A DNA stretch of 25,337 nt from IMG/VR virus record IMGVR_UViG_2698536560_000009, positions 1 to 25,337 of that record. The stretch is one strand, 5' to 3'. Of this stretch, positions 1 to 16,952 are shown piece by piece. The notes beneath the pieces were generated by a model. That model had not been told where the DNA came from, did no database searches, and was given only the letters and a program-made list of their open reading frames with translations. This DNA comes from a virus. Taxonomy: Duplodnaviria; Heunggongvirae; Uroviricota; Caudoviricetes. Positions within the stretch are counted from its first letter, which is position 1, and the number at the start of each line of letters is the position of its first letter. The translations under genes and the position numbers were made by a program.

Positions 1-324
1 TCAACTTTGTCCCTTATAGACGTTCTGCCATACGACGATGGAACCTACCTTAACAAATGATTCTTCGGTCAGGCTTCTATTAGTACCGCCATATACAATC
101 GGTATCCCAGTACTGGGTGAAGTACTTCGAGAGTTAACCGTCCCAGTACTGGGATAGTTTACCCCCTGATCTCCAACACGCATCATCTGGGAGGATGCAA
201 CGTAAGATAGTGCTGCTACACCAACACCAATAGCGATAGATGCAGCAAGACCTACGGCTGCATAGGCAGCGGCGGCGGCTGATGCACCTGCTATTACTGC
301 TGTTAATACGGCTGCTACTGCCAT
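1..324 (-). CDS. hypothetical distal-tail-module protein (lambda gpI position), hydrophobic Ala/Gly-rich N-terminus
   Basis: ATG at 322-324 on minus strand, TGA at 1-3. Last gene of the minus-strand tail block. First ~40 residues are A/G/V-rich and hydrophobic. Contains two CCCAGTACTGGG palindromes encoding P-S-T-G. No family recognised. Confidence 0.4.
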   Translation of the reverse strand: MAVAAVLTAVIAGASAAAAAYAAVGLAASIAIGVGVAALSYVASSQMMRVGDQGVNYPSTGTVNSRSTSPSTGIPIVYGGTNRSLTEESFVKVGSIVVWQNVYKGQS

Positions 325-325
325 G

Positions 326-715
326 TTATTTCCCTCCGAATCTATAAATTTTATAATTGTTTTCTATTGGTTCATATTTCATTACTGCATAAACACCATC
401 GATTGAAATGATTACTTTGCCTCTCCAGTACACAGTAGATTGGGAGCCAGTAATTAGGATATCCCCATCAAATGGTTCTACTTGTTTTGTACCCAGATCA
501 TTACATAGGGCATTTAGTGATTTATATGAACAATGTTCTTTTGCGTACTTTCGACCGCCAGTAGGTGACGTATATCTCTGATAGATTTCGTCCCTGTAAT
601 TTGTACCAAGAAGCATATCAATAACAGTCAGCGACATGATATGACAATCATTTTCACCGTATACAATTGGCTGACCGATTAGAGTACTAAGATATTCTGT
701 AATAAATCCATTCAT
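326..715 (-). CDS. putative tail tip assembly protein (gpK position), possible Cys/His peptidase-like
   Basis: ATG at 713-715 overlaps the upstream stop as TAATG. 129 aa with an N-terminal GENDCH motif and a later His, weakly reminiscent of NlpC/P60-type tail proteins. Function inferred mainly from position. Confidence 0.35.
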   Translation of the reverse strand: MNGFITEYLSTLIGQPIVYGENDCHIMSLTVIDMLLGTNYRDEIYQRYTSPTGGRKYAKEHCSYKSLNALCNDLGTKQVEPFDGDILITGSQSTVYWRGKVIISIDGVYAVMKYEPIENNYKIYRFGGK

Positions 716-1359
716 TATTTTTTACTCGCTTGCCAAAACTGTTCTGAACTATTTAGTATTCCGATTAGGTCAAAGAACTTATCACCCTTGTGGGTTGATT
801 GGTGAATTGATGTACTTGATAGTAGACGTTGTGTCTGGTCTAATTTCTTCCATATAGAATTAAGATTAACAGTGGTTTCATTCTGTGTGTTAGTTCCATC
901 TACAGAAAAATCACTGCTAAAATAATCTATATACCCACTAAAAATACGATAACGGTAAAGAAGTGCACCTGTTGCAGGGTTAACGATCCCCATCCAGATA
1001 TTAACTTTGGCATCTTTCCACAATCCTCTTAAAGCAAGGGAAAGATAATCCTGGCTTACGTTACTAATCTTAAACGTAGTACCGGTATTATTAATCTGAT
1101 TCTTTTCTACATAGTTCGCAAAGGATGAATCAATTAGATCTGGAATTGGTTTATATACAATGCCATTAATATTCTGTTCTACTACTGCATCAGTAAGATA
1201 TAAATTACTTCCTGTAGGAGGTAACAGATCAATCAGTTTTACCATGATTCCACACTGGTATAATTCCCTTTCTGTAAGAACTGACTTATTATCACCTCTC
1301 ATTAGATTCCAGTACTTTACTAATTCTGGGTTACTTAGTACATCGTTTGGAATTGCCAT
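715..1359 (-). CDS. minor tail protein (gpL position)
   Basis: 214 aa ORF with ATG at 1357-1359, directly downstream of the gpM-position gene in the tail block. No specific motif recognised. Confidence 0.4.
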   Translation of the reverse strand: MAIPNDVLSNPELVKYWNLMRGDNKSVLTERELYQCGIMVKLIDLLPPTGSNLYLTDAVVEQNINGIVYKPIPDLIDSSFANYVEKNQINNTGTTFKISNVSQDYLSLALRGLWKDAKVNIWMGIVNPATGALLYRYRIFSGYIDYFSSDFSVDGTNTQNETTVNLNSIWKKLDQTQRLLSSTSIHQSTHKGDKFFDLIGILNSSEQFWQASKK

Positions 1360-1360
1360 A

Positions 1361-1915
1361 TTACCCCCTTATATTCTCAGTTGCCGTAATTGTCATCTCA
1401 ATAATATTTGTACTTGGTAGATCATATGTAGAGTTAGCAGGTGTAAGAATAAAAGAACCCATTAGATTATCGTATTTTACAGTTTCCCCTATCTGGAGAT
1501 TTCGGATCAGTCCAGGGTAGATATTCAGAGTCGTTCCACTACGGGCAATAACACGATAGAGTTTTTTGTGTCCTGAGAATTGAATTAAATCACCAGGGGA
1601 AAGGTTATTAGTATTGGTCTGAATAGATGTAGCTCCGGCAGTACGGGCTGCTGTTACCTGTATACCCGTCGCCTGATTGCCTGAATAATCGCCCCACCAA
1701 CCAAGAGACATATCAAAAGGTCTGCCACTAGAATAGAGTGCAAGAAAGTTTGTTAAATCGGTTCTGTATTTTTTATTTGTTGTAACCTTAAAACTTATGC
1801 TGAAGTACTGTGTTCCGACAATACGGGTAATTACCTCACCAGACCATGTTTTGTTTTGGTATTGGGGGATATTATCAGAAAGTATAAAATCACTTATTAG
1901 AGAGTTATTAAACAT
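1361..1915 (-). CDS. minor/distal tail protein (gpM position)
   Basis: 184 aa ORF with ATG at 1913-1915 and an AGGAAAA Shine-Dalgarno just upstream. First gene after the tape measure gene, the usual position of the distal tail protein. Confidence 0.4.
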   Translation of the reverse strand: MFNNSLISDFILSDNIPQYQNKTWSGEVITRIVGTQYFSISFKVTTNKKYRTDLTNFLALYSSGRPFDMSLGWWGDYSGNQATGIQVTAARTAGATSIQTNTNNLSPGDLIQFSGHKKLYRVIARSGTTLNIYPGLIRNLQIGETVKYDNLMGSFILTPANSTYDLPSTNIIEMTITATENIRG

Positions 1916-1931
1916 ATATTTTCCTTATAAA

Positions 1932-1949
1932 GCCCACATGAATGTGGGC
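1932..1949 (-). terminator. intergenic hairpin downstream of the tape measure gene
   Basis: gcccaca / tgtgggc 7-bp stem with a 4-nt loop, between the tape measure stop and the next ATG. On the minus strand it is followed by UUUAUAAGGAAAA. It may be a partial terminator or an mRNA-stabilising hairpin. Confidence 0.25.
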
Positions 1950-1962
1950 ATACTGTATTTAC

Positions 1963-4224
1963 TTAGACGTTCCTCTGTTGGCTTTTACGTACTGCCTGAG
2001 TGATAGTATCGGCGTGTTTATCACACATACTCTGGAATTTTGAATCTGTGAGTTCTCCGGCACCCTGAATAATTAAAGGGGCATCAATTTTAATATCACC
2101 GCCTTTATCACCACCCTTATTATTCAAGTACTGTGTCAAGTCCTGGTTCAGAGATTTACCTACAACACGTTCACCTTTTTCAAGATTATATGTACCAGTC
2201 TTCGGTAGTGAGTCCCAGCCATCATGTGCCTGCCCTTCAATCTTTGTACCCTTAATCGTACTGACAATATTGGCACCTTCGGCAGCTACTTTAAGCCCTG
2301 CTGGAATCCCCATAGGCCATCCAAGTTTCATAGCCTCTGAAATACCCTGCTGAATATTGATAATAGACTGGGCAACTGCGATCCCTTTGCTCATTGCAAA
2401 TGCAGCTTTTGCCATAGCATTACTTTCACCAAATACACCTGCAAGAGTAGTACCGAGATCCTGAGCACCCGTTGCATACATAGAAAGTGTCTTTTGCTGG
2501 GCATCAATATTAGCCTGACTCATTTTGTCTGTAGTAGATTGTTGAATTGCTACCATGCGATCTTGGTAATCCTGATAACTTAATAACTTCTGTTCATACA
2601 GACTTTGATTCAGTGCTAATTCGGCCTGTCCTTCTGTTGCTAATGTATCGAGCGTGTTCTGATCGGCACTCATATTGAATGGATCTTGATTAAGTCCCAT
2701 ACGTTCGTTTTGACCTGCCAGTACTGAATTAAGGTCTTTCCCTGACATAGAACCACCAATTGCTGAAATATTCTGGGCAAGTTTAAGTGGGTCACTTTCG
2801 GTGAGCATTGAATCAACCATTTCTTTATACAGGCGTTTACGTGAATCAGTCTGCTTTCTTAATAGTTCAGTCTTTTCAGCTTCAGTTTTACCGAGAGTAG
2901 TTGCACTTGTTTTAATGCGTTGTTCTATTTCATCCTGGGTCTTATTAAATTGCTGTAGCTGGAGGGCAGCACCATTACCTGCAATACCATTCATAGTCTG
3001 TTCCAGTACTTTGGCAGCCTGAATACGATCCTTTGCGGCCTTATCACTGGCTTTTTTCGCTTCTTCCCCTGCTTTACCATCATCAAAGTTAGAACGCTCT
3101 TTTGTCGTTCCTGTATATGCCTTTGTGGTTGGTTTATAGTCTTCCTGAGAATATCCACGGGCAAGGGCAGCAAGACCACCAATACCTGGGCCTAGTGGTG
3201 AGAAAACTGCATCGGCTGCTGTCTGTACGTGTTTACGTCCTTTTGCTATTTGCTCTGGTGTAAACTCGGGTAATTCAAGGCCAATCTTTGAGCCTACATT
3301 ACGGATCATGTCATAGAATTTAATTACCTGATCGTATAACGACTGTATGATCGTATTATTTGAATCCCAGTTAAAGAATGAATTAATAAACTCAACTGCT
3401 TTTGTTTTGAGGTTGTCAAACCATTGATATATTTCCTTACAGGCTTTTACGAGTCCATTAAAAATATCAATGAGGGGTGTAACAATTTCAAATGCAAGAG
3501 TTTTCAGTCCACTACCAAGACCTGAAGTATTCTGACTTAACAGATCAAATGTTTTTGCCTGTTCATTAGTCATTGCTACGTTCTGGGCTGCAAGAGAGTT
3601 ATTAAATTCAATCTCACTGTTAAAAGAGTTGAATGTCGGTATTAGTTTTGCAGCATCACCACCGAGGGCGTTGATCATATTTGTTATTTCGGCAAGATTT
3701 GCACCATTCTTTTTCATATCAAAAAAGACTTTTGACAATGCCTGTAAACCACCATCTGCCTGTTTTAATGTCGGTATTAGGCTATTTACATCTACGCCGA
3801 ATGTTTTTAAGTCGGCACCAACACCAGAACCGTCAGCAGACGCAATACCAAGCTGGTCCATCACTGCTTCGTTAATCGAACCAACTTCTTCCATAGATAA
3901 TCCTATGGTTTTGAATGCTCCTGACCACTGCTGAAGTTGCTCGGCACTCAGTCCGGTTGTACGGGTCAATGCGTTGATCTCGTTTGCAAGACCAATTGTA
4001 TATGTAGTCAGTGCTGTAATAGCTGTAATTGCCAAGGTTGCCGCATTACCAACACCACCAAGACCAGTTGCCATTGTGCTTAGTCCACCACTAATACCAC
4101 CAAATACACCACCAGCACGATCACCAAAGTCGGCAAGTCCATTGCCAGCACTTTTTAAAGATTTTTGTAACCCAGATTCATCACCAGTGATTTCAAAAAT
4201 CATCTGTTGTTTATTCCCTGCCAT
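1963..4224 (-). CDS. tail tape measure protein
   Basis: 753 aa, Gly/Ala-rich N-terminus then long helical Q/E/K/A-rich regions typical of tape measure proteins. Lies immediately downstream of the G/GT chaperone pair; the GT stop (4226-4228) is 1 nt from its ATG (4222-4224). At roughly 0.15 nm per residue this implies a tail of about 110 nm. Confidence 0.8.
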   Translation of the reverse strand: MAGNKQQMIFEITGDESGLQKSLKSAGNGLADFGDRAGGVFGGISGGLSTMATGLGGVGNAATLAITAITALTTYTIGLANEINALTRTTGLSAEQLQQWSGAFKTIGLSMEEVGSINEAVMDQLGIASADGSGVGADLKTFGVDVNSLIPTLKQADGGLQALSKVFFDMKKNGANLAEITNMINALGGDAAKLIPTFNSFNSEIEFNNSLAAQNVAMTNEQAKTFDLLSQNTSGLGSGLKTLAFEIVTPLIDIFNGLVKACKEIYQWFDNLKTKAVEFINSFFNWDSNNTIIQSLYDQVIKFYDMIRNVGSKIGLELPEFTPEQIAKGRKHVQTAADAVFSPLGPGIGGLAALARGYSQEDYKPTTKAYTGTTKERSNFDDGKAGEEAKKASDKAAKDRIQAAKVLEQTMNGIAGNGAALQLQQFNKTQDEIEQRIKTSATTLGKTEAEKTELLRKQTDSRKRLYKEMVDSMLTESDPLKLAQNISAIGGSMSGKDLNSVLAGQNERMGLNQDPFNMSADQNTLDTLATEGQAELALNQSLYEQKLLSYQDYQDRMVAIQQSTTDKMSQANIDAQQKTLSMYATGAQDLGTTLAGVFGESNAMAKAAFAMSKGIAVAQSIINIQQGISEAMKLGWPMGIPAGLKVAAEGANIVSTIKGTKIEGQAHDGWDSLPKTGTYNLEKGERVVGKSLNQDLTQYLNNKGGDKGGDIKIDAPLIIQGAGELTDSKFQSMCDKHADTITQAVRKSQQRNV

Positions 4225-4225
4225 A

Positions 4226-4588
4226 TTATTTTCTTCCCATCCAGTTTAACATGTTAGCTCTCTGTTCTTCGGCGATCCGTTTCTCTCTCTCTTCGGCTTG
4301 TTCTTTAATGGTCTTATTGTTGATGATATTAAGAGAATCCAATTCTGTGATACTGAATTTCTTTAAGTCTTCCTTCTTAATATTCCCAGTACTGAGCCAT
4401 ATAGCCTGGAGTATTTCGGTATGTCTTACCTGTTCAATTCTGGAAGAATTTGGTTCTACAAAAGTGTCATATACAAATAGATAGATAAAAAGCGAAAAGG
4501 GCATGGTGCAGAGATCTTCCACACCACACCCTTTTGTCATCAGCATTTTTAGAGAAAGTTTAAGAAACGGATCGCCCCTTACTTTTTT
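4226..4588 (-). CDS. tail assembly chaperone -1 frameshift extension (gpT-like part of G-T fusion)
   Basis: This frame is open from 4588 down to the TAA at 4226-4228 and is the -1 frame relative to the G-like ORF. The slippery heptamer A_AAA_AAG sits at 4588..4582 on the minus strand, just before the G stop. The ORF-track Met at 4546 is internal to the extension. Confidence 0.6.
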   Translation of the reverse strand, partial: KKVRGDPFLKLSLKMLMTKGCGVEDLCTMPFSLFIYLFVYDTFVEPNSSRIEQVRHTEILQAIWLSTGNIKKEDLKKFSITELDSLNIINNKTIKEQAEEREKRIAEEQRANMLNWMGRK

Positions 4589-4869
4589 TCAATTTCTTCA
4601 ATATTCATAGCTTCGGTAAAAATACGCGTGATTTCGGTATTAAGTTTGATTTGATAAACCATGTCAATTTCGCTCTCTACCTGTTCTGGTGATTTAAAAA
4701 GTTGTTTACCATTGGCATCAACTACACAGTAATGGATTGTAGTGTACGGGTCACTACATTCACTATACTTAGAAATAGCTGGAAGACGAATATAAACAGT
4801 AAACCCCGGAGCAAGTTCAAAGGCATGTTTTTTGACACCAATTGCTGTCATTAGATTAGATAGATCCAT
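4579..4869 (-). CDS. tail assembly chaperone (gpG-like)
   Basis: 96 aa acidic ORF between the tail tube gene and the tape measure gene. Ends ...EIEKK-stop with the final codons GAA AAA AAG TAA forming a classic slippery site. Confidence 0.6.
   Translation of the reverse strand: MDLSNLMTAIGVKKHAFELAPGFTVYIRLPAISKYSECSDPYTTIHYCVVDANGKQLFKSPEQVESEIDMVYQIKLNTEITRIFTEAMNIEEIEKK
4582..4588 (-). other. programmed -1 ribosomal frameshift slippery heptamer A_AAA_AAG (G to GT)
   Basis: The minus-strand mRNA reads GAA AAA AAG UAA in the G frame. After a -1 slip it reads AAA AAA GUA AGG... into the open T frame. Confidence 0.6.
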
Positions 4870-4901
4870 GTGTATTTTTTCCTTATTATGATTATTTTAT
4901 A

Positions 4902-5378
4902 TTATGGTTTTGCTGCAATTTCACCAACTGCTACAGGTTCGCCCGTGATTGTCATAACAAATTCACGTGTTGCTACAGCGTCAAAATCGCCACCGACAAC
5001 ATCAGAACTAATATAGCCATTAACTATCGAGTAATAACCCACTCCATCGGTATCAGCGATGTTTTCGTAATAAGTTACTTTTACCTGCATAAGCGTCTGT
5101 TTTTGAGCTGCGGTAACTAACATCTCTTGACCTACTGCCCCTGGTTTCCAGTTCACCGATAGGGTTAGATCTGGCACAGAACGAGATCCTAAAAGCTTCT
5201 GTGCGTACTGCTTACCAAATGTATTTACTGAGATAATTGTAGACTCAGCACCTGCTGCTGCCGGGAAAGCTGCAACTTCTTCAATTACTGTAAAAGTGGT
5301 TGCCTGACCACCACCTGCTGGTGCTTCTGCAATTTCTACTACAACGTTATTCGCTGCGAAAATTCGATTAAAAGCCAT
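4902..5378 (-). CDS. major tail tube protein (lambda gpV-like N-domain)
   Basis: 158 aa, immediately upstream of the chaperone genes. The pattern LTLSVNWKPG...NGY...GDFDAV..REFV resembles the gpV tube domain and is shared with the N-terminus of the 560-aa protein at 8288-9970. Confidence 0.55.
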   Translation of the reverse strand: MAFNRIFAANNVVVEIAEAPAGGGQATTFTVIEEVAAFPAAAGAESTIISVNTFGKQYAQKLLGSRSVPDLTLSVNWKPGAVGQEMLVTAAQKQTLMQVKVTYYENIADTDGVGYYSIVNGYISSDVVGGDFDAVATREFVMTITGEPVAVGEIAAKP

Positions 5379-5399
5379 TTTAATTTCCTTATTTAATTA

Positions 5400-5435
5400 G
5401 GGTAACGTCCTGTTACCCGTTTCCTTTTTTTATTT
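5400..5435 (+). terminator. hairpin plus T-run, oriented antisense to the late operon
   Basis: gggtaac-gtcct-gttaccc stem-loop (5400-5418) followed by gtttcctttttttattt on the plus strand. It lies between the 964-aa gene and the tail tube gene. Confidence 0.3.
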
Positions 5436-8324
5436 ATGAAGATTGTAGTAATGCACATATAGCCCCAATCCGCGTAAAAGTTCACCCGAATAGAAACCAA
5501 AGAACATACTATTGTTTTCGGCAGTTGTTTCATTACCTGTTCTGATTGACGCAGGCCATGTACCATTCATTACATGATTTGGTGAAATAACTGCATAGTT
5601 AAGTTGTATTTCATCAAATAGTAATTGAATTAGCTCATGATCTGGATATCCGGCGATAGCCATCATACATGCCCCTGCTAACCATAGACCGGACATATGA
5701 GGGGTAAAGCCATCATATTCTACAGAACCATTATCCCTAAAATAGGTAGGAGCTTTACCGCCATTATTTTTCATGAACCATTTTAGATAGTTCATCCAGT
5801 TCTGGCAGAAAGATATTAGTTTAGGAGGTATTACAGTACTGTCTTGTCGTGACCATAATTCATGTACTGCATCACACCCACCAAAGAAAGCCCTTGGTTC
5901 GTATCCACTCCATGCTTCGGCGTACCAGTGCTGCATTATGAATTGATCTGGCTTACCATCAGGGGCATATGCTAAAGCGTCCTGTCTGTTCCATACGAAA
6001 GCCTGTGCACATGGTCCTGGTAATGATGGTTTAAATTTATTTGTAAACCATGCCTGAGAATCATATAGAAAATTGATACTGTTATTTAAGCGAGTATGAT
6101 CTATTTCTGTTCCTTTAAAGCACCAGATCGCCGGTAGTTGATAACCCGGATACGGTAGACCACGCCACCCAGAATATAACTGGGCATAGGGATCGGTAAT
6201 GTTAGAGAACGGAATTAAACCCGGAGTATACGCAAGACTATCTAGCATATAATCCTTAATAGTACAGTCACCTAAACGGGCTGTGTAACCATTACCAGTT
6301 GTGTCGTTAAACGTAAGCAGTACTGTGACCGAATAATCACCTGTCCCACCATCTGTATACATCGCAGGCAAATCATTAATACAATACCAGTCAATCTTCC
6401 CATTCACACCATTTACTGGATCTGCATCAAGTAGCAGTGTGAAAGATTCACGGTTCGTTAGTACTGGGCTTGCGGGAATAGGATCAGGTTGAATCCATTC
6501 TCCTGGGTTATCTGGATCTTCAATTTCGGGGTGATCGGGTTGATAACCGTTTAGTTTGAAGTCAGCAATAGTAAAAGTCTTTGTAACCCATTCACCATTT
6601 GTTGCAGGGAGCATAGCCCACCAACGCCATTTATTATCATCACTTATACGAAAGTTAAAATCATCATCATATGAACGATAGGTAAAAGATTGAATATTGG
6701 CAGTCTCTGGTGTGAATATCCAAAACCCCACCACCTGTCCCCCGTCACCATCCATTGTTGTAGACACGACGTTATCGTAATAATTTCCAAGTACTCCACT
6801 CTGATATTCAAAGTTTGTTACCGTGTTATCTCCATAATCGGCGATCATACGTAGATCAGCAGTCATATAATTAGAGCCATCTGGTTTCATTACACGTGTA
6901 AAACGATTCATAGGAATGTCCATTGTAGTGATAGAGCCATCTGGATTAGTCATTGGTAGACCACACCGATAATCAATTGCACCTTCTTCTGTTTTTGTTT
7001 TATTCACTGTGACTTCAGCAGAAACTGACATTGCAGTACTGGTATTATCAACACCACCATATTCAATATGAAACTTTGAGTTATTATTGAATTTAAACCA
7101 GATTGATTGTTGTTCTAACATCGTCTGTGCGGATGCACTTTGATTTATTACAATATAACCCTGTGCATCACGGGAATATGATGCTACTTGCTCACTTGGG
7201 TAGAAGTAGTCGTATGAAATACCATCAGTAAAAGGTGTTACGGCAATAGTAGATTTACGAAAGAACATATCGTACTTGTCAATATCTGAATATCCATAAC
7301 AGGTTAATAGTGCACATTGCCACGCAAGATAATACTGGCGTTCTCCTGTAATATCCCAAAGTAGCTTGGCTGCCTGACAAAACCATAATTCGGCATCTGA
7401 TGCATTATCAGAGAAGTCCAAAGAACCATAGTTATCAATCGGTACGTGTACAGGTCGGTTATGCCAGCGTTCATTACGCTTGAACATATACCCGCCATGT
7501 TCTACAGGGTTTCGGGTTGCATAGTTAAAACGATATTCACCAGTAATGGTTTTATTCTTTAACTGTACTGTACCTTCCTGACCAGTTAGACCGGATTGCA
7601 GTACAGTGCCGTTTGAGTCTACCTTACGTCCGGTACGATCAATGATCCATTCGACGTCATAGGTTGGTGCTTTAGTGTCCCAGTCTATTGAGTCTTCATT
7701 GGCAAGCCACAGATAAGCAGTTGCGTTAACCTGATTCCAGCCAAGTCCCGCACGCTTAGGGAAGGCAAACCATACTGCATCGAGGTATTCACCCCAGTGT
7801 GGTGCACCATGTGGGATCTTTGTAAGGCCATTAGCCCATGTGAATAGTGTCCCTTTAAAACCGCCATGCGTCGGATATTCTGGATCTAATGGGTAGTGTG
7901 CCAGTACTGGAGCCTTCCCATTACAAATCCAATTACAGCGTAGTGATGAACTCGGTGGATCTGGAAATGGTGCACCACGATAGAACGCCTTGTGATATGC
8001 GTTAAAGTACTCTTTTGCCTTCTGTAGATAGAAAGGGTCTTTAGTTGCCTGATACACATATATTGCCCCCAGAATCTGGAGGCTTTGACCTTCTGTAGTT
8101 GCATCACCTTCCGGCTGTGCCTCCCATCCAGTTTCTGCAATAAAGTGACGGTTGTTTGCAAGTACATTATCTGGGTTTAATACATAGTGCTGTGTCTTAT
8201 TATTTGTTGTAAGGCCAGTATTACGTGCCAAGAACTTAAACTGACCTTCGATCATTTGATATGCATTATCTATATTGTGTGGTTTCATTATTTCATATCT
8301 GCCATTAGTAGAGAGCCGTACCAA
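5430..8324 (-). CDS. large virion-associated protein, possible carbohydrate-active/receptor-binding enzyme
   Basis: 964 aa (952 aa if ATG at 8286-8288 is used instead of the TTG at 8322-8324, which has a GGGGG Shine-Dalgarno). Very rich in W/Y/F with Gly-aromatic motifs such as GFTPHMSGLWLAGACMMAIAGYPDHE and FFGFYSGELLRGLGLY, which suggest a glycosidase-like fold. The functional call is inference only. Confidence 0.3.
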   Translation of the reverse strand: MVRLSTNGRYEIMKPHNIDNAYQMIEGQFKFLARNTGLTTNNKTQHYVLNPDNVLANNRHFIAETGWEAQPEGDATTEGQSLQILGAIYVYQATKDPFYLQKAKEYFNAYHKAFYRGAPFPDPPSSSLRCNWICNGKAPVLAHYPLDPEYPTHGGFKGTLFTWANGLTKIPHGAPHWGEYLDAVWFAFPKRAGLGWNQVNATAYLWLANEDSIDWDTKAPTYDVEWIIDRTGRKVDSNGTVLQSGLTGQEGTVQLKNKTITGEYRFNYATRNPVEHGGYMFKRNERWHNRPVHVPIDNYGSLDFSDNASDAELWFCQAAKLLWDITGERQYYLAWQCALLTCYGYSDIDKYDMFFRKSTIAVTPFTDGISYDYFYPSEQVASYSRDAQGYIVINQSASAQTMLEQQSIWFKFNNNSKFHIEYGGVDNTSTAMSVSAEVTVNKTKTEEGAIDYRCGLPMTNPDGSITTMDIPMNRFTRVMKPDGSNYMTADLRMIADYGDNTVTNFEYQSGVLGNYYDNVVSTTMDGDGGQVVGFWIFTPETANIQSFTYRSYDDDFNFRISDDNKWRWWAMLPATNGEWVTKTFTIADFKLNGYQPDHPEIEDPDNPGEWIQPDPIPASPVLTNRESFTLLLDADPVNGVNGKIDWYCINDLPAMYTDGGTGDYSVTVLLTFNDTTGNGYTARLGDCTIKDYMLDSLAYTPGLIPFSNITDPYAQLYSGWRGLPYPGYQLPAIWCFKGTEIDHTRLNNSINFLYDSQAWFTNKFKPSLPGPCAQAFVWNRQDALAYAPDGKPDQFIMQHWYAEAWSGYEPRAFFGGCDAVHELWSRQDSTVIPPKLISFCQNWMNYLKWFMKNNGGKAPTYFRDNGSVEYDGFTPHMSGLWLAGACMMAIAGYPDHELIQLLFDEIQLNYAVISPNHVMNGTWPASIRTGNETTAENNSMFFGFYSGELLRGLGLYVHYYNLHK

Positions 8325-9970
8325 GTACTACCCCCGTCTACTGTGACAAACTGAAATACATCAGTAGAATCTTTTGTAAAGGTTAATACTGGAACACGCC
8401 CATAAGACCATAAAATGTTTGTAGGCCAGGATATTTTATTTGCCCCTGTACCCTGCTTAATAAGCACCTGAAATGTTTGACTCTTTTTGTCATTACCACT
8501 TGCATTTAGTACAGAGAAGTTTGACGTTGGTTGTGATAGAGTCACGGTGAATGTAGTTTTACTATCACTCAAATCTATTTCTAATGAATTATTTACAAGG
8601 GTATTTAGTTTAAGAATATCATCTACAATTGTTACCTTCGTATCAATATCTTCCTTCAGAACCTTGTCTTTGTCATCGATCTGTTTCTTTGAATATGTTC
8701 CTACATCATCAAAATTCAGTACTATATTACTGTTAAGAGCATACCCGTTAATAGTGGTGATACGTAGTGCAAATAGATCATTTGACTGGGTACGTGAGTA
8801 CACATCAGGAATATCAGCAGCAACTAATTGAATGTTAGTTCCTGATAATGGCTTATTGTTGATTAAGTATGTTTTTGGTACATATGTGTTATTAGTAAAA
8901 ACAATACTTGCCATATCTGGGAGTTGTGCGGCTGTCAGTGTTATATTCTGGGAAAGACTTAAACCGTTAACAGTAGTTGTTTTTTTAACAAATGAAGTAT
9001 CAACCTGAGTCTGTGAATACACATCAAGAATATCTGCGGCAACTAAGTTTAATGCCGTACCGGATAGTGCATGACCGTTTAACTGGAATACTTTTGGGAC
9101 TACGTTCTGATCTATATACGTCTTACTGTATACATCAGCGATATCAGAAGCCAGTAGTGTAATATTAGCAGTTAGTGGTTTGCTATTGATAGTACGGGTA
9201 ATCGGTACGTAGTCTGCAAGGGATGCACTTGATGCAGCACCCAGTTCTGTCAGTGTAGGTTTATCAGCACTGGTATAGACCTTGTACCATGCCCCCATAG
9301 ATGCACCATAGTTACGCACGTTAATTATTGGCGTACCTGTCTTACTGATAACCAATTGTGTACCAAAGTTCGAATCAAGGTTATTAATACCGAGTACATC
9401 TGTCCCTGTTGGTGAACCTGCACCAGGGATCTTAATAAAAGCATTACCGTCACGCCCCTGATAACTTGGAAACTCAATACCGTTTGCACCTACGCCCCAG
9501 TCTCCGCGATTTAGAGGGACTATCGTACTGTCAAGAATACCCGAAGAAAGTTGTTCGTTTGGGGTGAATACGTAGGAACGGGAAGTAACAGAATCATAAT
9601 CACCACTGGTGGATACAGAAGCCAGATAACCATTATAAAGTGCATAGTTAACCGTAAGGTCATTCTGTCCTTCATCGGGGATCTCTACCTTCATTTGTAC
9701 TAATTGGCGACTTTTTACGATGTCATCAAGAAACTTATGTTTAGCAGGAACCCAGTTAACCGTAATAGTGACATCACCATATGTGCTATCACCTGCTACT
9801 TTTTCGATGTATTCAGAGTCATATGTTTCAATAGCAAGGGTTGCAGTACTGTGACCGAATGAAGGGAACCCGCTTAATTCTGGTACTTCTTTAAATCCCT
9901 TCGATTTGGGGTCACTGTTTAATGTGTCGGTGTTAATCCATACACTTGTGTTGTTAGTAATAAAAGCCAT
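8288..9970 (-). CDS. tail protein with gpV-like tube N-domain and C-terminal tail-fibre-type repeats
   Basis: The first ~140 aa align by eye with the 158-aa tube protein (VNW.P, NGY, GDYD.V..R.YVFT). This is followed by about five ~37-aa repeats of the form (I/V)N(S/G)KPLSG.NI.L.AADI.DVYS.T, resembling the phage tail fibre repeat seen in side tail fibres. Confidence 0.5.
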   Translation of the reverse strand: MAFITNNTSVWINTDTLNSDPKSKGFKEVPELSGFPSFGHSTATLAIETYDSEYIEKVAGDSTYGDVTITVNWVPAKHKFLDDIVKSRQLVQMKVEIPDEGQNDLTVNYALYNGYLASVSTSGDYDSVTSRSYVFTPNEQLSSGILDSTIVPLNRGDWGVGANGIEFPSYQGRDGNAFIKIPGAGSPTGTDVLGINNLDSNFGTQLVISKTGTPIINVRNYGASMGAWYKVYTSADKPTLTELGAASSASLADYVPITRTINSKPLTANITLLASDIADVYSKTYIDQNVVPKVFQLNGHALSGTALNLVAADILDVYSQTQVDTSFVKKTTTVNGLSLSQNITLTAAQLPDMASIVFTNNTYVPKTYLINNKPLSGTNIQLVAADIPDVYSRTQSNDLFALRITTINGYALNSNIVLNFDDVGTYSKKQIDDKDKVLKEDIDTKVTIVDDILKLNTLVNNSLEIDLSDSKTTFTVTLSQPTSNFSVLNASGNDKKSQTFQVLIKQGTGANKISWPTNILWSYGRVPVLTFTKDSTDVFQFVTVDGGSTWYGSLLMADMK

Positions 9971-9973
9971 AAA

Positions 9974-10410
9974 TTATTCCCCATAGCTAAAAGATATAGT
10001 TTGTGTATGCACATACATCGTATTAGTTGCTTCGGCCTGGGTAGTCATTAAGCTCTCTTCCAGAACAACATTGAAAACATCCATTGGAAGTAGTTTGTTC
10101 AATTCATTAATAAAACCACTTGCATAGATTGCATCAATCACTTTACTAATTTCATCTGATGCAAGTTTATAATTTTCGCCTACTGCTACAAAGTCCACTC
10201 TAAATTCACAGAGATAATTAATCCCACGTGGTATTAATTGACCATTAATTAATGTATTTGCTTTTTGAATGCGTGAACGTGTTACAGTACTGTCACCGAT
10301 GTATAACATTGGTTTGTCGTCTACCGTTGCTCTCGATTGATATTGAAGATTTACCAAAGTACTGAGATTATTAATCAAAAATTTCCGTATTGTGTAGTCT
10401 GAAGTTCGCA

Positions 10411-10411
<1 letters not shown>
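9974..10411 (-). CDS. putative neck / tail completion protein
   Basis: 145 aa ORF between the capsid gene and the tail genes, with TAATG start/stop overlap to the upstream gene. Assigned by position only. Confidence 0.3.
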
Positions 10412-12554
<2,143 letters not shown>

Positions 12555-13998
12555 GGGTTAGTACTGGTGAATAGCCCATCTCAGAAATTATTTGTTCTTT
12601 ACTCTTTAATCCATTTTCCATTGCGAGAATCTCAGTCTGTAAATCTTTCAGTGGGTCTAGACTAATATGACGTTGTGGAATGAAATTACATTCAGTTAGT
12701 TCAGTAAATTTACTAAATGGCAAATCCTTCAACATCGGGTTATTTAGCATTTCATTCTTGAGCCACTTAATATACAAAGGTTGAAGTACTGACTTAACCA
12801 GGTTGTTTTGTTTTGCAAGAAATGTATTTTGCTGAATTTTGTCTGTTAACTTCGAGGCACTGAATGATGCCCCTGCGGTCGAACCTGTTAACGTCTGTGG
12901 TGTAAGATCGAGTGACATCCCTATGAAAATCAACTGGTTATCTAGAAATTCCTGTAGTGCGTCGAATGTTTGTGATGGACTGAGTGACTTCACATCTTGA
13001 CCCTCACGAAGTTCTAACAGTACTCCACCCTCCATACGTGCAACCTGGTATTCATCTACATCAGAATCGTCATCATCATCAATATCTTCAAATGATGCAT
13101 CACGTGACGCATTCGTGATAAAACCCATGCTTTCCGCTGCTAATTGTCGCGTCTTGATTGACGCCCTCATGAATTTATCCAGGTCTGCCAGTAGTCCAGT
13201 ACCGCAAAATATATCGGGAATGCCGCGTTGCTGTTCTGGATAGTCAGTACTGAATAAGTGAAGGATCTCTTCTGCGGGTACACGTTCTGCTTCAGTACTA
13301 ACTGAGTACGATACGGGGTCATATTGTGTTAGAAAGTAAGCAACGGGTTTACCAGTGCCTTTTTCAAACTCAATACCATTTGAACGATAGTTACCATTAC
13401 TTAGCCATTGATTACCTTTCGTATCAATTACAGTACTGTCTAGTACTTCAATCTTCATACCAGGATGGATACGAATAAAACAACTACCATCAATTGAACG
13501 TGTCTTCTCTACCAGTGACTGGAATTTGGACATTTCAAGTTTTCCATTTAGGGAAAAACGTGCGGGGTCTTCACACCATGAGTAGAACGCATCGGCGAGA
13601 CGTTTATTAATATCATTATTAACATTGTCATCTTCAGCAACGTGAACACATGGACGATACGTAATACCATTTGCACCACATACACTACTGGCATTCTGTG
13701 CAATATACTTCTTATGAATTGGGTTACTCATACTAAGCTGGCGACTTTGTAGTACTGCCGTGTTCAATACACGGTTAATTACGGCATTGATCGAGCCACT
13801 CTTACCAACTGCACCAAATGTACCAAGTTGTGCGGCTGCGTTACCGTTACCGATGGAAGAAATGGAACGTTTGGTTTCAATACCTAAATTACCAAGTACT
13901 GGTTCAGTACGTATTTTTGCCTTACCAATATATAGTTTTGGTTCTTCTTTTGGCTGTTCCTTTGCCTTTCTAAAATTAAAATTAAACATATTCCCCTC

Positions 13999-14475
13999 TT
14001 ATCTTGTAAAACGTGTAATTGATTTGATGGGGTTGCCCGTCTTAACTTTTCGTACACGTGCCTTTTCATCTGCAAGTTTCTTTGCATATACTTGTCGCAT
14101 ACGGTAAAGTACTTCAGCACTTTCTGTTACTAGTGTTTTATTATTAATGGTAAGTTGTGTAGTACCACCCCCAAGAATCTTGGATTCAATAACCATATCA
14201 ATTTCATCGATCAATTCCTGTAACTGATTTATTTTATTTGCTGCTTCAAGTGGATCTTTAACAGTGAAAAGTTGTACAGACATACTACCATCGCTAATAA
14301 TTGCAGTACTGACACCAGCTACCCATTGAGATGTATCAATGGGTAAATTTGGAAAGTATTCTTGCTCATTACCTTTTGCATCAATGATTTTAATCGTTGC
14401 TGTTGATGGGAAGTCTAGTACTATAGTTTCACCAATAAAGATCGGGCTAGTTAAGTCCGTCTTACGTGGATTCAT
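13999..14475 (-). CDS. hypothetical head protein (gpW position between terminase and portal)
   Basis: 158 aa ORF with ATG at 14473-14475, lying between the large terminase and portal genes. No motif recognised. Confidence 0.35.
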   Translation of the reverse strand: MNPRKTDLTSPIFIGETIVLDFPSTATIKIIDAKGNEQEYFPNLPIDTSQWVAGVSTAIISDGSMSVQLFTVKDPLEAANKINQLQELIDEIDMVIESKILGGGTTQLTINNKTLVTESAEVLYRMRQVYAKKLADEKARVRKVKTGNPIKSITRFTR

Positions 14476-14487
14476 ATTAATTCCTTA

Positions 14488-16407
14488 TTAAAACCAGTTA
14501 CGATTATTAAGTGCTGAAAGTCCTTTTTTCTTAGGTTTTGATTTCTGCTTCTCTTTCTGTACTGGTTGTTGTTCTGCTTTAGTTTTTATGGATTCTTCTA
14601 CTTTAGTATTTAGTTCTTTTTGTTTAGCTCTATACTCTCGCAACTTCCTATACGGTTGTGCACCAAGTGCCTGTATCTTGTGATCAATCGCTGCTAATGA
14701 GTAGACGAGCGTATCGAGACATTCGTTACGCTCTCCATTTGGATTCTCCCATACCATCACTGAACCTTTTCGTACTAGTTTTTCTGCTGTAAGTTGGAGG
14801 AAGTAATCATCGACAAGGGAATGACTGAAGTGTATATTAGTACTATACTCTCCCCCTTCACATGCCTGTCGTAATAACTTCTTAACCTGGTGCTTCAGTA
14901 CTTGAGTATTAATATTAACCAGTTGATGTCCTGCCGTTGTGGAATCCTTCGTGATGGGACCAGTCTGTGTGTTTGCACCCTTAATTGCATGCCATCGTCC
15001 CCCACTGGAAGAACAAAAGCGATATATGGAACTGGTTGCAGATCCGTTTGAGCTATCAATAAAGGATCTCAGTACTGGTACTTTTCTACCTGAAGTGGTT
15101 TTAAATATACTCTTACTATAATTAAGTAGTTCAGTATATGCCTTATCTTCATACTTAGTACAATCGACACCATAAAACATACGGTGGTCCAGAACCCATA
15201 TATTCTTTTCATCAAATGCAATAGTACTACATTCTAAGCGGTCTATCTGTTGGTCACATGCCAGTACAATACCAAGTGCATTATCTGGAATATGTTTTAC
15301 ATCTAAATCAAAGTCGCGTAAGTTTTCCAGTACTGTAAGATCTTCTTTAATATTATTCTTATCTACCCACGGTAAACCGAGTACGTTATTATAGAAAGAT
15401 TGTTCTTCAAAGTTTATCCATGAGTTCTTAAAGTCTTCAACAATCTTCTCAATAGTAGTAATCGGTGAATATAGTCTATTAACATGGTATCCCCTGAAAC
15501 CCATCACATGCAGTCTGTGTGCTTTCCAGTAACCTTTTGCAACCATCCGTGCACGTTGCCCTTCAGTGATTACTTCATCACATCCTGGACAGTGTAGGCG
15601 TGCTGTAGTGGGTTCTGGTGCATTACGTCGTTCGTTGAACTTCACCCATTCAAACTTTATATTCTCCCATTCTAAAATATGGTCATGATCACAATGTGGA
15701 CACACGACATGAAAATGTCTCTGGTCTGAGAGTTCCCATTGCTGGCAGATCATATCGTCCTGTACTAATGGTGTGGAGGCCATCACGATCAGGGAGTTCT
15801 TACCAAACTGAGTTGCACGCTGTTCTATGAGTGATAGGGGGTTGCCCTCATCTTGTTCTGGATCTACACCTGATAATTCATCAATGAAGATTGCAGGAAC
15901 TGTAAGCGAGCGTAGGGACTGGCTAGAATTGAGGTTAACAAAGTATGTCTTAGTACCGTCAACGTTCTGTTGAGTGTGTAGATCGTTTACTGCATTCTTA
16001 TCTGATTTGTCAGTGATTAATGCTTGAAGGTTTGGACACGCATTAATAGTATCCATCCATTTACCAGTACGGAACTTTTTCACAGTACTACCACTACTAC
16101 CCGCAAATATCATATGGGAGGGTTTATTTGCCATCCTGTAAAGCATTGCATTTTGTAGTATTGTTGTCTTGAGTAATTGTGCACTACTCATTAAACAGAT
16201 CTTCTGTACTGATGGATCTACTGTGGCGTTTAGGGGTTCTACTTGAAATGAAAATAATTTAGTTTTTTGTTGTGCCAGTGGTCCATCTGGAAATACAGTA
16301 TATTGTTCACACCATTCAGATGGTTTAATCTTCGGTGGGGGTAATATTGATTTCAGACTCTGGTTCAGAATCTTCATCATCTTCTTCTGGCTGTTCTTCG
16401 TACTCAT
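14488..16407 (-). CDS. terminase large subunit (lambda gpA-like)
   Basis: 639 aa. Contains Cys/His clusters (CPHCDHDH, HCPGCDE) and an acidic IFIDELSG segment typical of gpA-family terminases. Follows a Nu1-like small subunit gene. Confidence 0.8.
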   Translation of the reverse strand: MSTKNSQKKMMKILNQSLKSILPPPKIKPSEWCEQYTVFPDGPLAQQKTKLFSFQVEPLNATVDPSVQKICLMSSAQLLKTTILQNAMLYRMANKPSHMIFAGSSGSTVKKFRTGKWMDTINACPNLQALITDKSDKNAVNDLHTQQNVDGTKTYFVNLNSSQSLRSLTVPAIFIDELSGVDPEQDEGNPLSLIEQRATQFGKNSLIVMASTPLVQDDMICQQWELSDQRHFHVVCPHCDHDHILEWENIKFEWVKFNERRNAPEPTTARLHCPGCDEVITEGQRARMVAKGYWKAHRLHVMGFRGYHVNRLYSPITTIEKIVEDFKNSWINFEEQSFYNNVLGLPWVDKNNIKEDLTVLENLRDFDLDVKHIPDNALGIVLACDQQIDRLECSTIAFDEKNIWVLDHRMFYGVDCTKYEDKAYTELLNYSKSIFKTTSGRKVPVLRSFIDSSNGSATSSIYRFCSSSGGRWHAIKGANTQTGPITKDSTTAGHQLVNINTQVLKHQVKKLLRQACEGGEYSTNIHFSHSLVDDYFLQLTAEKLVRKGSVMVWENPNGERNECLDTLVYSLAAIDHKIQALGAQPYRKLREYRAKQKELNTKVEESIKTKAEQQPVQKEKQKSKPKKKGLSALNNRNWF

Positions 16408-16915: not shown

Positions 16916-16952
16916 ACTTCCCGATTGTGTCTATTCAGAGGGAAGTACCTAT

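Follow-up and report, generated by a model that had tools for sequence, protein, structure and literature searches.

A putative tube-anchored side fibre and its GH8-like partner protein in a prophage of Escherichia coli

The tail gene region of the window, i.e., the whole stretch of 25,337 nucleotides that was analysed (IMG/VR record IMGVR_UViG_2698536560_000009, Caudoviricetes), holds two tube-like genes of very different length on either side of a large open reading frame. This arrangement raises the question why a tail operon should contain a second, much longer version of a tube-protein domain, and what the large protein encoded next to it contributes. A preliminary description, made from the letters alone, had taken the two flanking proteins for tail-tube-like paralogs with a common motif series, and the large protein for an enzyme-like, possibly glycosidase-like product; it viewed the two large genes as an inserted decoration or receptor-binding module in a lambda-like operon, and proposed pairwise alignment and structure prediction of the two N-domains as checks.

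This paper describes the protein families, predicted folds, gene order and relatives of the region, of which the features are listed in Table 1. With somewhat better than even confidence, the region as a whole is best explained as encoding the side-fibre apparatus of a temperate siphophage that resides in E. coli as a prophage.

Table 1. Features of the tail gene region and their positions in the window
Feature	Positions	Strand	Details or basis
Two small neck-position genes	9974..10707	minus	FII-like, 98 aa (10411-10707); 145 aa (9974-10411)
Fibre protein, 560 aa	8288..9970	minus	tube-like N-domain, neck region, five shaft repeats, docking-type C-domain
Tube-protein-like N-domain, aa 1-150	9521..9970	minus	28% identity to the 158-aa protein; AF2 and Foldseek
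Conserved region after the tube-like domain, aa ~151-245	9236..9520	minus	opens with motif GDWGVGANG
Five fibre shaft repeats, 36-37 aa each, aa 261-443	8642..9190	minus	repeat scoring against shuffles
C-terminal ~100-aa domain, proposed docking, aa 459-560	8291..8596	minus	motif QGTGANKISWP...W.YGR.PVLTF
Predicted GH8-like split (alpha/alpha)6 barrel with beta-rich insertions, 952 aa	5430..8288	minus	start codon overlaps fibre stop
Beta-sandwich insertion inside the barrel sequence, aa 357-680	6249..7220	minus	all-beta by DSSP in the AF2 model
Hairpin, 8-bp, GC-containing	5400..5418		between the 952-aa gene and the tube gene, which are 51 nt apart
Major tail tube protein, 158 aa	4902..5378	minus	phrog_158 match and gene position
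Downstream tail genes	1361..4869	minus	chaperone-position genes (4579-4869, 4226-4546), tape measure (1963-4224), distal tail protein (1361-1915)

The tube protein, its paralog and the tail operon

In PHROG profile searches the 158-aa protein matched phrog_158, annotated as 'major tail protein', with an E-value of 3.7e-16, and the N-terminus of the 560-aa protein matched the same family (E 1.8e-18); the Pfam lambda tube families Phage_TTP_11/12 were matched weakly by both (19.7 and 16 bits, at gathering cut-offs of 26-28). BLASTP aligned the two proteins with each other over 138 aa, covering residues 3-136 of the 560-aa protein, at 28% identity and E 8e-16, and the motifs VNW.P, NGY, and GD.D.V..R were found in register in this pairwise alignment. 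The tube-like paralogy and the common motif series of the preliminary description were thereby confirmed. Chance similarity between the 158-aa protein and the N-domain of the 560-aa protein was ruled out by the BLASTP E-value together with the clean separation of clades in eight loci that is described below.

Searches of the PDB with the 560-aa, 158-aa, and 952-aa sequences returned no usable match, and the fold of the N-domain was approached by structure prediction. The homolog search with the N-domain alignment gave 8 short proteins and thus a shallow alignment, so that the AF2 model of the whole 560-aa protein was poor (pLDDT 46); its usable part is the N-domain, which was modelled with moderate confidence (pLDDT 61-86 at residues ~11-40 and ~61-150, and about 33 at residues 41-60). 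The best PDB matches of this domain found by Foldseek were the YDC107 tail core, lambda gpV, the 80alpha/SaPI1 tube, and Hcp1 (E 5e-6 to 1e-3, TM 0.5-0.6 on target). The predicted fold of the N-domain is that of tube proteins, a beta-sandwich with a flanking helix, in line with the outcome of the sequence alignment.

The 158-aa gene lies directly upstream of two chaperone-position genes and the tape measure gene, as it does in all related loci, and tube orthologs of 150-167 aa hold the same position in all related loci compared. Judged by gene position and by homology, from which its fold is also taken, the 158-aa protein is the real tail tube subunit; its PGAP label is 'phage tail protein'. 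The 560-aa protein was likewise considered as major tube protein and was rejected in this role. Its gene is located one or two genes further upstream, away from the place that tube genes occupy next to the chaperone pair and the tape measure gene, and the protein was therefore filed as a tube paralog.

The age of the duplication was deduced from eight related loci (the window, L002, and L004-L009), with the near-identical contig L003 as a ninth; a genome scan with a 6-sequence alignment yielded 6 loci. The gene order is the same in all eight: connector genes, tube-domain fibre, tube gene, chaperones, tape measure, and distal tail protein. Mean identity amounts to 54% among the tube proteins, 38% among the fibre N-domains, and 26% between the groups, and the two groups form clean paralog clades, which implies that the duplication is older than this phage family. 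The occurrence of a tube-domain fibre in every one of these loci, combined with the old duplication, makes the fibre gene a standing component of the operon and not an insertion. The duplicated tube domain of the preliminary description is therefore retained, as an old tube paralog with a clade of its own, whereas its view of both large genes as an inserted module does not apply to the fibre gene and holds for the distal cassette only. The comparison with lambda-like operons proved partly appropriate: it fits the head and neck genes, but the distal tail genes match other PHROG families.

Only two small genes are present between the capsid gene and the fibre gene. The 98-aa product weakly matches Pfam Phage_attach (E 0.005) and phrog_82 head closure (E 0.002). 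The 145-aa product, considered as tail terminator, matched nothing in Pfam, PHROGs, and NCBIfam at permissive thresholds, and the canonical terminator was consequently not identified.

The fibre protein, its C-terminal domain and the distal cassette

In PHROG searches the N-terminus of the 560-aa protein matches major tail protein, whereas its middle and C-terminal parts match tail fibre families. Full-length homologs with 69-98% identity occur in Enterobacter, Cronobacter, Klebsiella, E. coli, and Pantoea, and are mostly labelled 'hypothetical'. The tube-like domain is followed by a conserved region with the motif G[DN][YF]G[VL]G, which was found in 100 of the 107 fibre-family members longer than 300 aa, and the fibres of DCP80 and of L004-L009 stay similar to the 560-aa protein up to residue ~235-245 or beyond. 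AF2 gave no confident structure for residues 150-245 or for the C-domain, and no fold was assigned to either. The shaft repeats begin at residues 261, 297, 334, 370, and 407, are 22-54% identical to one another, and have a mean pairwise score 21 standard deviations above that of shuffles (z = 21). They match the tail-fibre PHROGs 23008 and 17472 as well as tail fibres of Vibrio and Salmonella phages. The earlier count of about five fibre repeats of some 37 aa was thus accurate, and so was the notion that the longer paralog runs on into a fibre.

Clustering of the fibre N-domain family at 50% identity gave 131 clusters, including 95 of more than 600 aa; nearly all of these long clusters have the tube-like domain at the N-terminus, and at least 61 of the 95, according to a local HMM, end in a Peptidase_S74 chaperone domain. 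The latter domain was also present in seven of the nine relatives scanned with Pfam. The S74 intramolecular chaperone is typical of trimeric fibres and spikes, such as the K1F endosialidase and the L-shaped T5 fibre pb1, which ends in it. A Pfam scan detected no S74 domain in the 560-aa protein, in which a gp140-like C-domain stands in its place, and a trimeric state of this fibre is hence suggested by its relatives and its fibre-type repeats. Judging from these families, the putative mounting of fibres through a tube domain is widespread in bacterial genomes; among phage genomes, a megablast search with the region gave no match, and the N-domain alone matched the single phage record DCP80.

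The C-domain has a distribution of its own. It is 41-50% identical to the C-terminus of small proteins of the phi92-like phage Bas62 (Bas62_0024), 4MG, and rV5 (gp43), each encoded directly upstream of a homolog of the 952-aa protein, and 29-38% identical to the equivalent small proteins of a Pseudomonas prophage, a Salmonella prophage, and Stenotrophomonas phage Philippe; the BLASTP E-values were 1.6e-31 for Bas62_0024, 3.5e-21 for rV5 gp43, and 1e-14 to 1e-17 for the latter three. Moreover, the C-domain HMM matches the gene upstream of the 952-aa homolog in L014 and L016. In eight of nine contexts (this siphophage, the phi92-like and rV5 myophages, a P2/HP1-like Pseudomonas prophage, the Salmonella prophage, the podophage Philippe, and two metagenomic contigs) the C-domain is encoded in the gene that immediately precedes the 952-aa family gene; in the ninth, a P2 gpI baseplate wedge domain and a 952-like domain are directly joined in a fusion. 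The partner of ~950 aa was found immediately downstream in the window, L001, L010, L011, L012, L013, L014, and L016. The N-terminal parts of the adaptors from the different contexts are unrelated to one another, and none of 120 homologs combines the adaptor C-domain with the 952-aa family in a single protein.

Within the fibre family the cluster of the window is the only one with the C-domain, and the relatives without the C-domain are also without the 952-aa gene. The cassette is absent from L004-L009, in which the tube gene follows the fibre gene directly, or, in L008, after one ORF of 125 aa. By its distribution, the C-domain of ~100 aa together with the 952-aa gene is a swapped, horizontally shared cassette and the sole swapped part of the fibre module, and we infer that the C-domain is the adaptor on which the 952-aa protein docks. 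More than 500 sequenced phages have the pair of adaptor and 950-aa protein, among them the rV5, phi92, and PVP-SE1 groups, which have broad host ranges and are used in therapy research.

The 952-aa protein

All three ORFs were found at the coordinates stated beforehand, on the minus strand. The length of 964 aa given for the ORF between the paralogs, however, counts from a TTG codon (8324) that is located within the 560-aa gene. Translation probably begins at the ATG at 8288, which shares bases with the stop codon of the upstream gene (TAATG), so that the product has 952 aa; a contig of 98% identity has its gene call at the same start. In the gap towards the tube gene, the T-run of the hairpin, a terminator-like feature, is on the plus strand only, and the operon is on the minus strand; promoter and terminator scans of the region were uninformative, with fewer promoter-like sites than in shuffles.

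The model of the 952-aa protein contains the (alpha/alpha)6 barrel that characterizes glycoside hydrolase family 8 (E. coli BcsZ; C. perfringens CPF_2247, PDB 3ren), which is its nearest fold family. Enzymes of this family cleave beta-1,4-linked glycans with inversion. The earlier portrayal of the 952-aa protein as enzyme-like and possibly glycosidase-like is borne out at the level of the predicted fold. By sequence, the protein matched neither a Pfam family (threshold E 0.1), Glyco_hydro_8 included, nor an NCBIfam family (threshold E 1), and a profile of 47 homologs searched against the PDB gave merely marginal matches to GH76 helix hairpins. Residues E66, D298, E300, and D770 are invariant across these 47 homologs, and the motifs around them are collinear with TTSEGQS, SASDGDVW, and YDAIRVY of BcsZ, in local alignments that are not significant (E about 1). 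In BcsZ we take the roles of the residues concerned to be catalytic acid (Glu), signature Asp, and base (Asp). Foldseek additionally gave weak partial matches to tandem CBM22 (4xup), CBM11 (1v0a), an agarase CBM region (4bq2), and GH101 accessory domains (E 1e-5 to 3e-3), which were assigned to residues 357-680 by the all-beta content of that part, the output being without query residue ranges. The modelled beta-sandwich insertion thus weakly resembles carbohydrate-binding modules.

Homologs from phages of E. coli, Salmonella, Vibrio, Pseudomonas, Stenotrophomonas, and Shewanella retain 42-54% identity, and rV5 gp42 is 31.5% identical to the 952-aa protein (E 5e-134). Full-length homologs of the two large ORFs are kept in many genera, at 70-78% identity. 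For a depolymerase, the 42-54% identity of the 952-aa family across phages of very different hosts is unusual, and could reflect a structural role or a very conserved ligand. Mass spectrometry has shown both rV5 gp42 and rV5 gp43 to be present in virions (PMC3606486). Downstream of the 952-aa homolog, loci of the phi92 type contain further fibre genes. One source names a 952-aa homolog 'tail formation protein'.

Proposed architecture, comparison with known systems and alternatives

The reading that we moderately favour is that of a tube-anchored side fibre docking a glycan-binding and probably hydrolytic 952-aa protein. The 560-aa protein would be a fibre, probably trimeric, of which the first ~150 residues descend from an old tube-subunit paralog and most likely anchor the fibre by replacing the tube subunits in one ring of the tail, a stack of hexameric rings around the tape measure protein; six N-domain copies in that ring would accommodate two trimeric fibres. 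By analogy with T5 p140, the favoured ring would be the one next to the distal tail protein. The five repeats would constitute the shaft, and the last ~100 residues the adaptor to which the product of the next gene, coupled to it in translation, is recruited. The latter, as a virion-borne barrel of predicted GH8-like fold, would bind, and probably cleave, surface polysaccharide during adsorption. The receptor-binding appearance attributed to the module beforehand is supported in this respect. The order of the genes, with the fibre gene between neck genes and tube gene, counts against a distal position and argues for a head-proximal one.

A precedent for a tube-paralog ring is provided by T5, in which the tube paralog p140, as a single ring between the last tube ring and the distal tail protein, and the collar p132 around it serve as side-fibre anchor (PMC10038345). 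In both systems a dedicated paralog of the major tube protein carries the side fibres, here covalently as a fusion, and relatives of the fibre in the window end in S74, as pb1 does. The differences are that T5 employs three separate proteins, whereas tube-like domain and fibre form one polypeptide here; that the p140 gene is located among baseplate genes, and the fibre gene here upstream of the tube gene; and that neither a p132-like collar among the operon ORFs nor sequence similarity to T5 proteins was seen. The lambda gpV Ig domain and SPP1 gp17.1* share with the 560-aa protein a tube fold with an outward C-terminal extension, and the N-domain model matches gpV. In those cases, however, the major subunit or its frameshift variant bears a small globular domain, in contrast to a separate, anciently diverged paralog with a fibre of 400 to >1000 aa. 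The distal part resembles phi92 gp140/gp141 and rV5 gp43/gp42 from the lateral tail fibre locus of Vequintavirinae and relatives, with identities of 41-50% for the C-domain and 31-54% for the 952-aa protein, and with adjacent or overlapping genes in the same order (the pair was equated with gp140 and gp141 of phi92 from the order of the genes in Bas62, and not from a direct comparison). The small protein of the myophages carries a short N-terminal part, and both genes are located among baseplate genes, whereas here the adaptor domain appears grafted onto the tube-anchored fibre of a siphophage.

The location of the fibre invites a different explanation, namely that the tube-like domain makes up the final ring at the head-proximal end, directly below the terminator, or belongs to the terminator itself, and that the fibres are neck or collar projections comparable to T4 whiskers or lactococcal neck passage structures, acting in early reversible binding and not at the tail tip. 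This is unlikely, although the fibre gene is found between neck-position genes and tube gene in every locus, the genes between capsid and fibre are few and include no identified canonical terminator, and the adaptor and 985-aa pair of Salmonella prophage L011 comes right after the tail terminator gene and before the sheath gene. The N-domain is nearer to the tube protein of the same phage (26-28% identity) than to any family of terminators, with tube proteins as its best Foldseek matches; the known tube-paralog ring with S74-type fibres, T5 p140, is distal; and a glycan-cleaving tip far from the cell surface would be less obviously useful. Quite improbable is co-polymerization of the 560-aa protein with the 158-aa protein along the whole tail, which would be fibre-studded in the manner of SPP1 gp17.1*. 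Decoration of tube subunits is familiar from the lambda gpV Ig domain and from SPP1, and the alignment shows that the paralog keeps the arm at the N-terminus and the core motifs of the tube protein; yet extensions of 400 to >1000 aa, an S74 trimerization chaperone in relatives, by which three neighbouring subunits would have to join per fibre, and the crowding of a flexible tail by a 952-aa partner on every fibre argue against it, and clades distinct at 26% identity fit a specialized position better than interchangeable subunits.

Independent of location, the 952-aa protein may be a non-catalytic structural or lectin component, i.e., a scaffold or branching node of the fibre. This possibility is doubtful, but it agrees with the conservation across six host genera, unlike that of typical hypervariable depolymerases, with the absence of any matching glycosidase HMM in Pfam and NCBIfam, and with the 'tail formation protein' name and the neighbouring fibre genes of homologs. 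Finally, both large genes could be non-functional remnants of a decaying cryptic prophage: the prophage is rare, being present in 4 of 5426 complete E. coli genomes, and in strain N61 an IS3 element interrupts the 952-aa gene; over the 3.5 kb used as query, the copies in strains FDN-24 and FDN-9 show 97.7% identity. Such decay is extremely improbable here, because both ORFs are intact in the window, full-length homologs persist in many genera, and the structural operon of the window is whole and syntenic with the related loci.

Joining the two halves of the favoured architecture leads to a broader and more tentative proposal, which we consider possible rather than probable, of fibres built into the tube wall of a non-contractile tail combined with the gp140-like domain of ~95 aa as a universal plug. 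Three N-domains per trimer would occupy half a ring, a collar-free answer to the 6-to-3 symmetry mismatch that would be used by a large family of Enterobacterales prophages. By means of this plug, one and the same GH8-like protein of 950 aa would be carried by siphophage tubes, by myophage baseplates, and by a podophage-type virus, i.e., one with a portal of the P22/SU10 type. Tube paralogs as well as side fibres were known before; in the papers and databases searched, no description was found of a fibre with a tube-domain N-terminus, i.e., a tube-paralog fibre fusion, and neither the tube-wall fibre nor the universal plug was found described as a modular principle.

If the domain does enter the tube wall, it would represent a simple, portable anchor for receptor-binding fibres on siphophage tails or F-type tailocins. 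Adaptor and 950-aa protein as one unit also constitute a concrete hypothesis for the rV5, phi92, and PVP-SE1 groups. In a recent cryo-EM paper on phi92, gp141 is absent from the main text and gp140 could not be placed in the density map; if the plug reading is true, gp140 and gp141 may explain unassigned fibre density in phi92-like phages. PGAP and other sources label fibres with a tube-like N-domain 'hypothetical' or merely 'tail fiber domain-containing'.

Tail tube protein and tube-domain fibre

The genes of interest all lie on the minus strand in one structural operon (see table). The observation in the preliminary description is confirmed, with one small correction of a gene start. As claimed there, the 158-aa and 560-aa proteins are tube paralogs, displaying 28% identity over 138 residues by BLASTP (residues 7-143 with residues 3-136; E 8e-16). 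Each has a match to PHROG 158 'major tail protein' (E 3.7e-16 for the shorter protein and 1.8e-18 for the longer one); Pfam lambda tube matches were sub-threshold for both. AF2 modelled the 560-aa protein poorly as a whole (pLDDT 46), with values in the N-domain of 61-86 at residues ~11-40 and ~61-150 and about 33 at 41-60. The top PDB matches to this model are Hcp1 and tube proteins of siphophages (YDC107 tail core, lambda gpV, 80alpha/SaPI1; E 5e-6 to 1e-3). The proposed fibre repeats were recovered as five units starting at residues 261, 297, 334, 370, and 407, with a repeat-to-repeat similarity 21 sd over shuffled controls. The intervening gene, described earlier as encoding 964 aa, stands, but its start is most likely the ATG at 8288, a codon that overlaps the upstream stop codon (TAATG); the resulting length of 952 aa agrees with the gene call in a 98%-identical contig.

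Positions of the structural operon and neighbouring features in the window
Feature	Position	Strand	Basis or remark
SLATT and SMODS genes	17005-18293	+	
Small terminase	16846-16325	-	operon gene
Large terminase, gpA-type	16407-14488	-	family assignment
Head-tail joining protein	14475-13999	-	family assignment
Portal, lambda-type	13989-12478	-	family assignment
Protease-capsid fusion	12554-10713	-	family assignment
98-aa protein, FII-like	10707-10411	-	family assignment
145-aa protein	10411-9974	-	no family assigned; between FII-like and 560-aa genes
560-aa protein	9970-8288	-	phrog_158-matching N-terminus
964/952-aa protein	8324 or 8288 to 5430	-	phrog_2871 match
Intergenic gap, 51 nt	5379-5429		8-bp hairpin
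158-aa protein	5378-4902	-	phrog_158 match
Two small genes, tail assembly chaperone position	between 158-aa and tape measure genes	-	position
Tape measure protein	4224-1963	-	family assignment
Distal tail protein, then tip genes	1915-1361 (distal tail protein)	-	family assignment
107-aa ORF	1-324	-	

An exhaustive HMMER search with residues 1-160 of the 560-aa protein yielded a tube-domain family of 131 clusters at 50% identity, 95 of which represent proteins of more than 600 aa, with the domain N-terminal in nearly all. Members occur in Edwardsiella, Citrobacter, Erwinia, Pantoea, Shigella, and E. coli, under source names such as 'tail fiber domain-containing protein' and 'pyocin knob domain-containing S74 family peptidase'. 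Of the nine members scanned with Pfam, seven have a Peptidase_S74 intramolecular chaperone at the C-terminus, a domain characteristic of trimeric fibres and spikes, and a local HMM located it in 61 of the 95 long members. The motif G[DN][YF]G[VL]G follows the tube-like domain in 100 of the 107 members longer than 300 aa.

The gene order of the window (connectors, tube-domain fibre, tube gene, chaperones, tape measure, distal tail protein) is shared by the near-identical contig L003, a module of Escherichia phage DCP80 (L002), and six related loci (L004-L009, from Buttiauxella, Pluralibacter, Pseudescherichia, Pseudocitrobacter, Enterobacter, and Phytobacter, respectively), with fibres of 560-1182 aa and tube proteins of 150-167 aa. 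Neighbour-joining placed the eight tube proteins and eight fibre N-domains from the window, L002, and L004-L009 in two separate clades, with a mean identity of 54% within the tube clade, 38% within the fibre N-domain clade, and 26% from one clade to the other; these sequence relationships therefore indicate that the duplication predates this phage family and that both copies were retained. Consequently, the earlier view of an inserted module does not hold for the tube-domain fibre, a family trait in a shared gene order, and applies to the distal end only, where a shared cassette is found.

Among 50,697 phage records, the N-domain query matched DCP80 only (E up to 0.001), whose 699-aa fibre homolog came up when the whole 560-aa protein was the query. 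DCP80 (PQ671644.1) is a 141-kb record classified as a T-even Gaprivervirus, with a siphophage structural module of ~18 kb at 1-18557, and probably represents either an assembly chimera or a record that includes a co-induced prophage. Its module encodes, in synteny with the window, the fibre, an unrelated 745-aa protein, and a 164-aa tube protein, the 745-aa protein being a different, uncharacterised partner in the slot of the 952-aa protein.

The 952-aa protein and its proposed adaptor

The 952-aa protein matches phrog_2871 'tail protein' with 1215 bits, and has homologs in 528 phage records (identity up to 54%) and in Enterobacterales prophages (76-78%). Conservation this high across hosts is unusual, and points either to a glycan that is itself conserved or to a partly structural role. 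The AF2 model (pLDDT 89.3, pTM 0.85; 47-sequence alignment) contains ~12 helices drawn from residues 6-102, 297-334, and 719-950, separated by beta-rich insertions (residues 121-290 and 357-680). Searches against glycosidase HMMs gave zero matches; at the level of the fold, the earlier 'glycosidase-like' suggestion is supported. Three residues invariant in all 47 homologs fall in short motifs collinear with E. coli BcsZ: E66 (TTEGQS versus TTSEGQS), D298 (NASDAELW versus SASDGDVW), and D770 (QDALAY versus YDAIRVY). In BcsZ, the matched stretches carry the catalytic acid, GH8 signature, and catalytic base. Because the local alignments are not significant alone (E about 1), this collinearity is a lead rather than proof of family membership.

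At L004-L009 no 952-aa gene was found, and the tube gene directly follows the fibre gene in five of these six loci, with one extra 125-aa ORF between them at L008. Among the 131 family representatives, the adaptor-type C-domain (residues ~459-560; motif QGTGANKISWP...W.YGR.PVLTF) is confined to the cluster of the window itself. This C-domain shares 41-50% identity with the C-terminal end of a small protein in phi92-like phages, 4MG, and rV5, the gene of which directly precedes that of the 952-aa homolog. Such pairs include the adjacent Bas62_0024 (157 aa) and Bas62_0025 (958 aa), counterparts by gene order of phi92 gp140 and gp141; rV5 gp43 (222 aa) and gp42 (865 aa; 31.5% identity to the 952-aa protein, E 5e-134); and pairs of 173 and 943 aa after a gpI-like wedge gene in a P2/HP1-like Pseudomonas prophage, 207 and 985 aa between the tail terminator and sheath genes of a Salmonella prophage, 189 and 1083 aa in Stenotrophomonas phage Philippe, and 107 and 1631 aa or 310 and 953 aa in two metagenomic contigs. 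The adaptor N-terminal parts are mutually unrelated across contexts, and in the sole adaptor-less context a 952-like domain is fused straight to a P2 gpI baseplate domain. Read most simply, these comparisons suggest a C-domain that recruits the large protein and a variable N-terminal part, in the window the tube-anchored fibre, that fixes the pair to the tail type of the phage.

The Salmonella enterica contig (L011, AADECS010000022.1, 7070-15031) carries, in this order, the terminator gene, adaptor and 985-aa homolog, two Big_2 proteins, and a sheath-like gene (PF11863, E217_gp31_N); as in the window, the cassette is placed in the neck-to-tail interval, not among baseplate genes. Both rV5 gp42 and gp43 have been detected in virions by mass spectrometry (PMC3606486), and a review citing Schwarzer et al. 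2012 lists phi92 gp141 and gp142 as glycosidases (PMC5380687). In a 2026 phi92 cryo-EM paper gp141 is absent from the main text, gp140 could not be fitted in the density map, and fibre II is left unassigned (PMC13450770).

Each of the three component kinds (tube paralogs, side fibres, and fibre-borne glycosidases) is already known. The literature searched contained no description of a fibre with a tube-protein paralog as its own N-terminus, nor of an adaptor domain and 950-aa protein forming a single unit portable between tail types, and annotation pipelines name neither.

Proposed position of the fibre on the tail

In the proposed assembly, the 158-aa protein would build the tail tube, and the 560-aa protein would be a fibre, probably trimeric, whose tube-like domains replace the tube subunits in one ring; six copies per ring would give two fibres. 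Its C-domain would carry the 952-aa protein, predicted to be glycan-binding and probably hydrolytic. The closest precedent is T5, in which a single ring of the tube paralog p140 sits above the distal tail protein and anchors three L-shaped fibres via the p132 collar; the authors of that work remarked that other siphophages must anchor their side fibres differently (PMC10038345). Whereas anchor, collar, and fibre are separate in T5, anchor and fibre are proposed to be one polypeptide here. Based on this precedent and on the S74-type fibres of the relatives, a distal ring is favoured. Placement in a head-proximal ring, which is favoured by the gene order and by the lack of a canonical terminator among the operon genes by family assignment, appears rather unlikely, and co-polymerisation of the 560-aa protein along the whole tube less likely still.

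Prophage setting and mosaicism

Positions 4-25337 are 99.99-100% identical to a ~35-kb prophage of the bovine mastitis strain E. coli N61, located between yggS and yggR with a serine-type 'recombinase family' gene at one end, in which PGAP labels both large genes 'hypothetical protein'. The single large difference is an IS3-family element within the N61 952-aa gene (~codon 787; window ~5926-5930, L018 24046-25302 in the N61 prophage), which offers a naturally occurring knockout for possible use as a control. The 3.5-kb stretch at 6500-9970 was found in only 4 of 5426 complete E. coli genomes. The GC content of the structural operon is 36-43%, well under that of the E. coli chromosome (roughly 51%), and close homologs occur in Enterobacter, Cronobacter, Klebsiella, and Pantoea, which suggests a recently acquired or broadly mobile lineage.

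Comparison with L003 revealed a sharp mosaic breakpoint (10707-10713; L003 9253-9264): from the FII-like gene through the tape measure protein every protein is 92-100% identical, whereas identity drops to 34-45% in the terminases, head-tail joining protein, portal, and capsid protein. These sequence comparisons place the junction of the recombined head and tail modules after the capsid gene and before the first neck gene. Adjoining the small terminase gene in divergent orientation are two genes, one for a two-transmembrane protein of 169 aa with a SLATT domain (weak Pfam SLATT_4 match, E 2.4e-4) and the other for a 258-aa SMODS nucleotidyltransferase (E 4.9e-31); together they look like a CBASS-like defence pair of the prophage. 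In L003 this slot is occupied instead by an OLD-family AAA_15/TOPRIM nuclease, so that it may represent a hotspot for defence genes. GC content in the surrounding 17-24 kb is only 30-35%.

The N-terminus encoded by the 107-aa ORF is very hydrophobic and rich in Ala/Gly. This ORF corresponds to the beginning of a 1185-aa protein that the N61 prophage encodes in full, named 'phage tail tip fiber protein'; its stop codon in the window consists of bases 1-3, which do not align to N61, and its end is most likely a window-edge effect rather than a real truncation. The hairpin between the 952-aa and tube genes (GGGTAAC...GTTACCC) lies just upstream of a good tube-gene ribosome-binding site, scanned as terminator-like only on the strand opposite the operon, and may act as an RNA stabiliser or attenuator setting the expression ratio of the fibre and tube genes.
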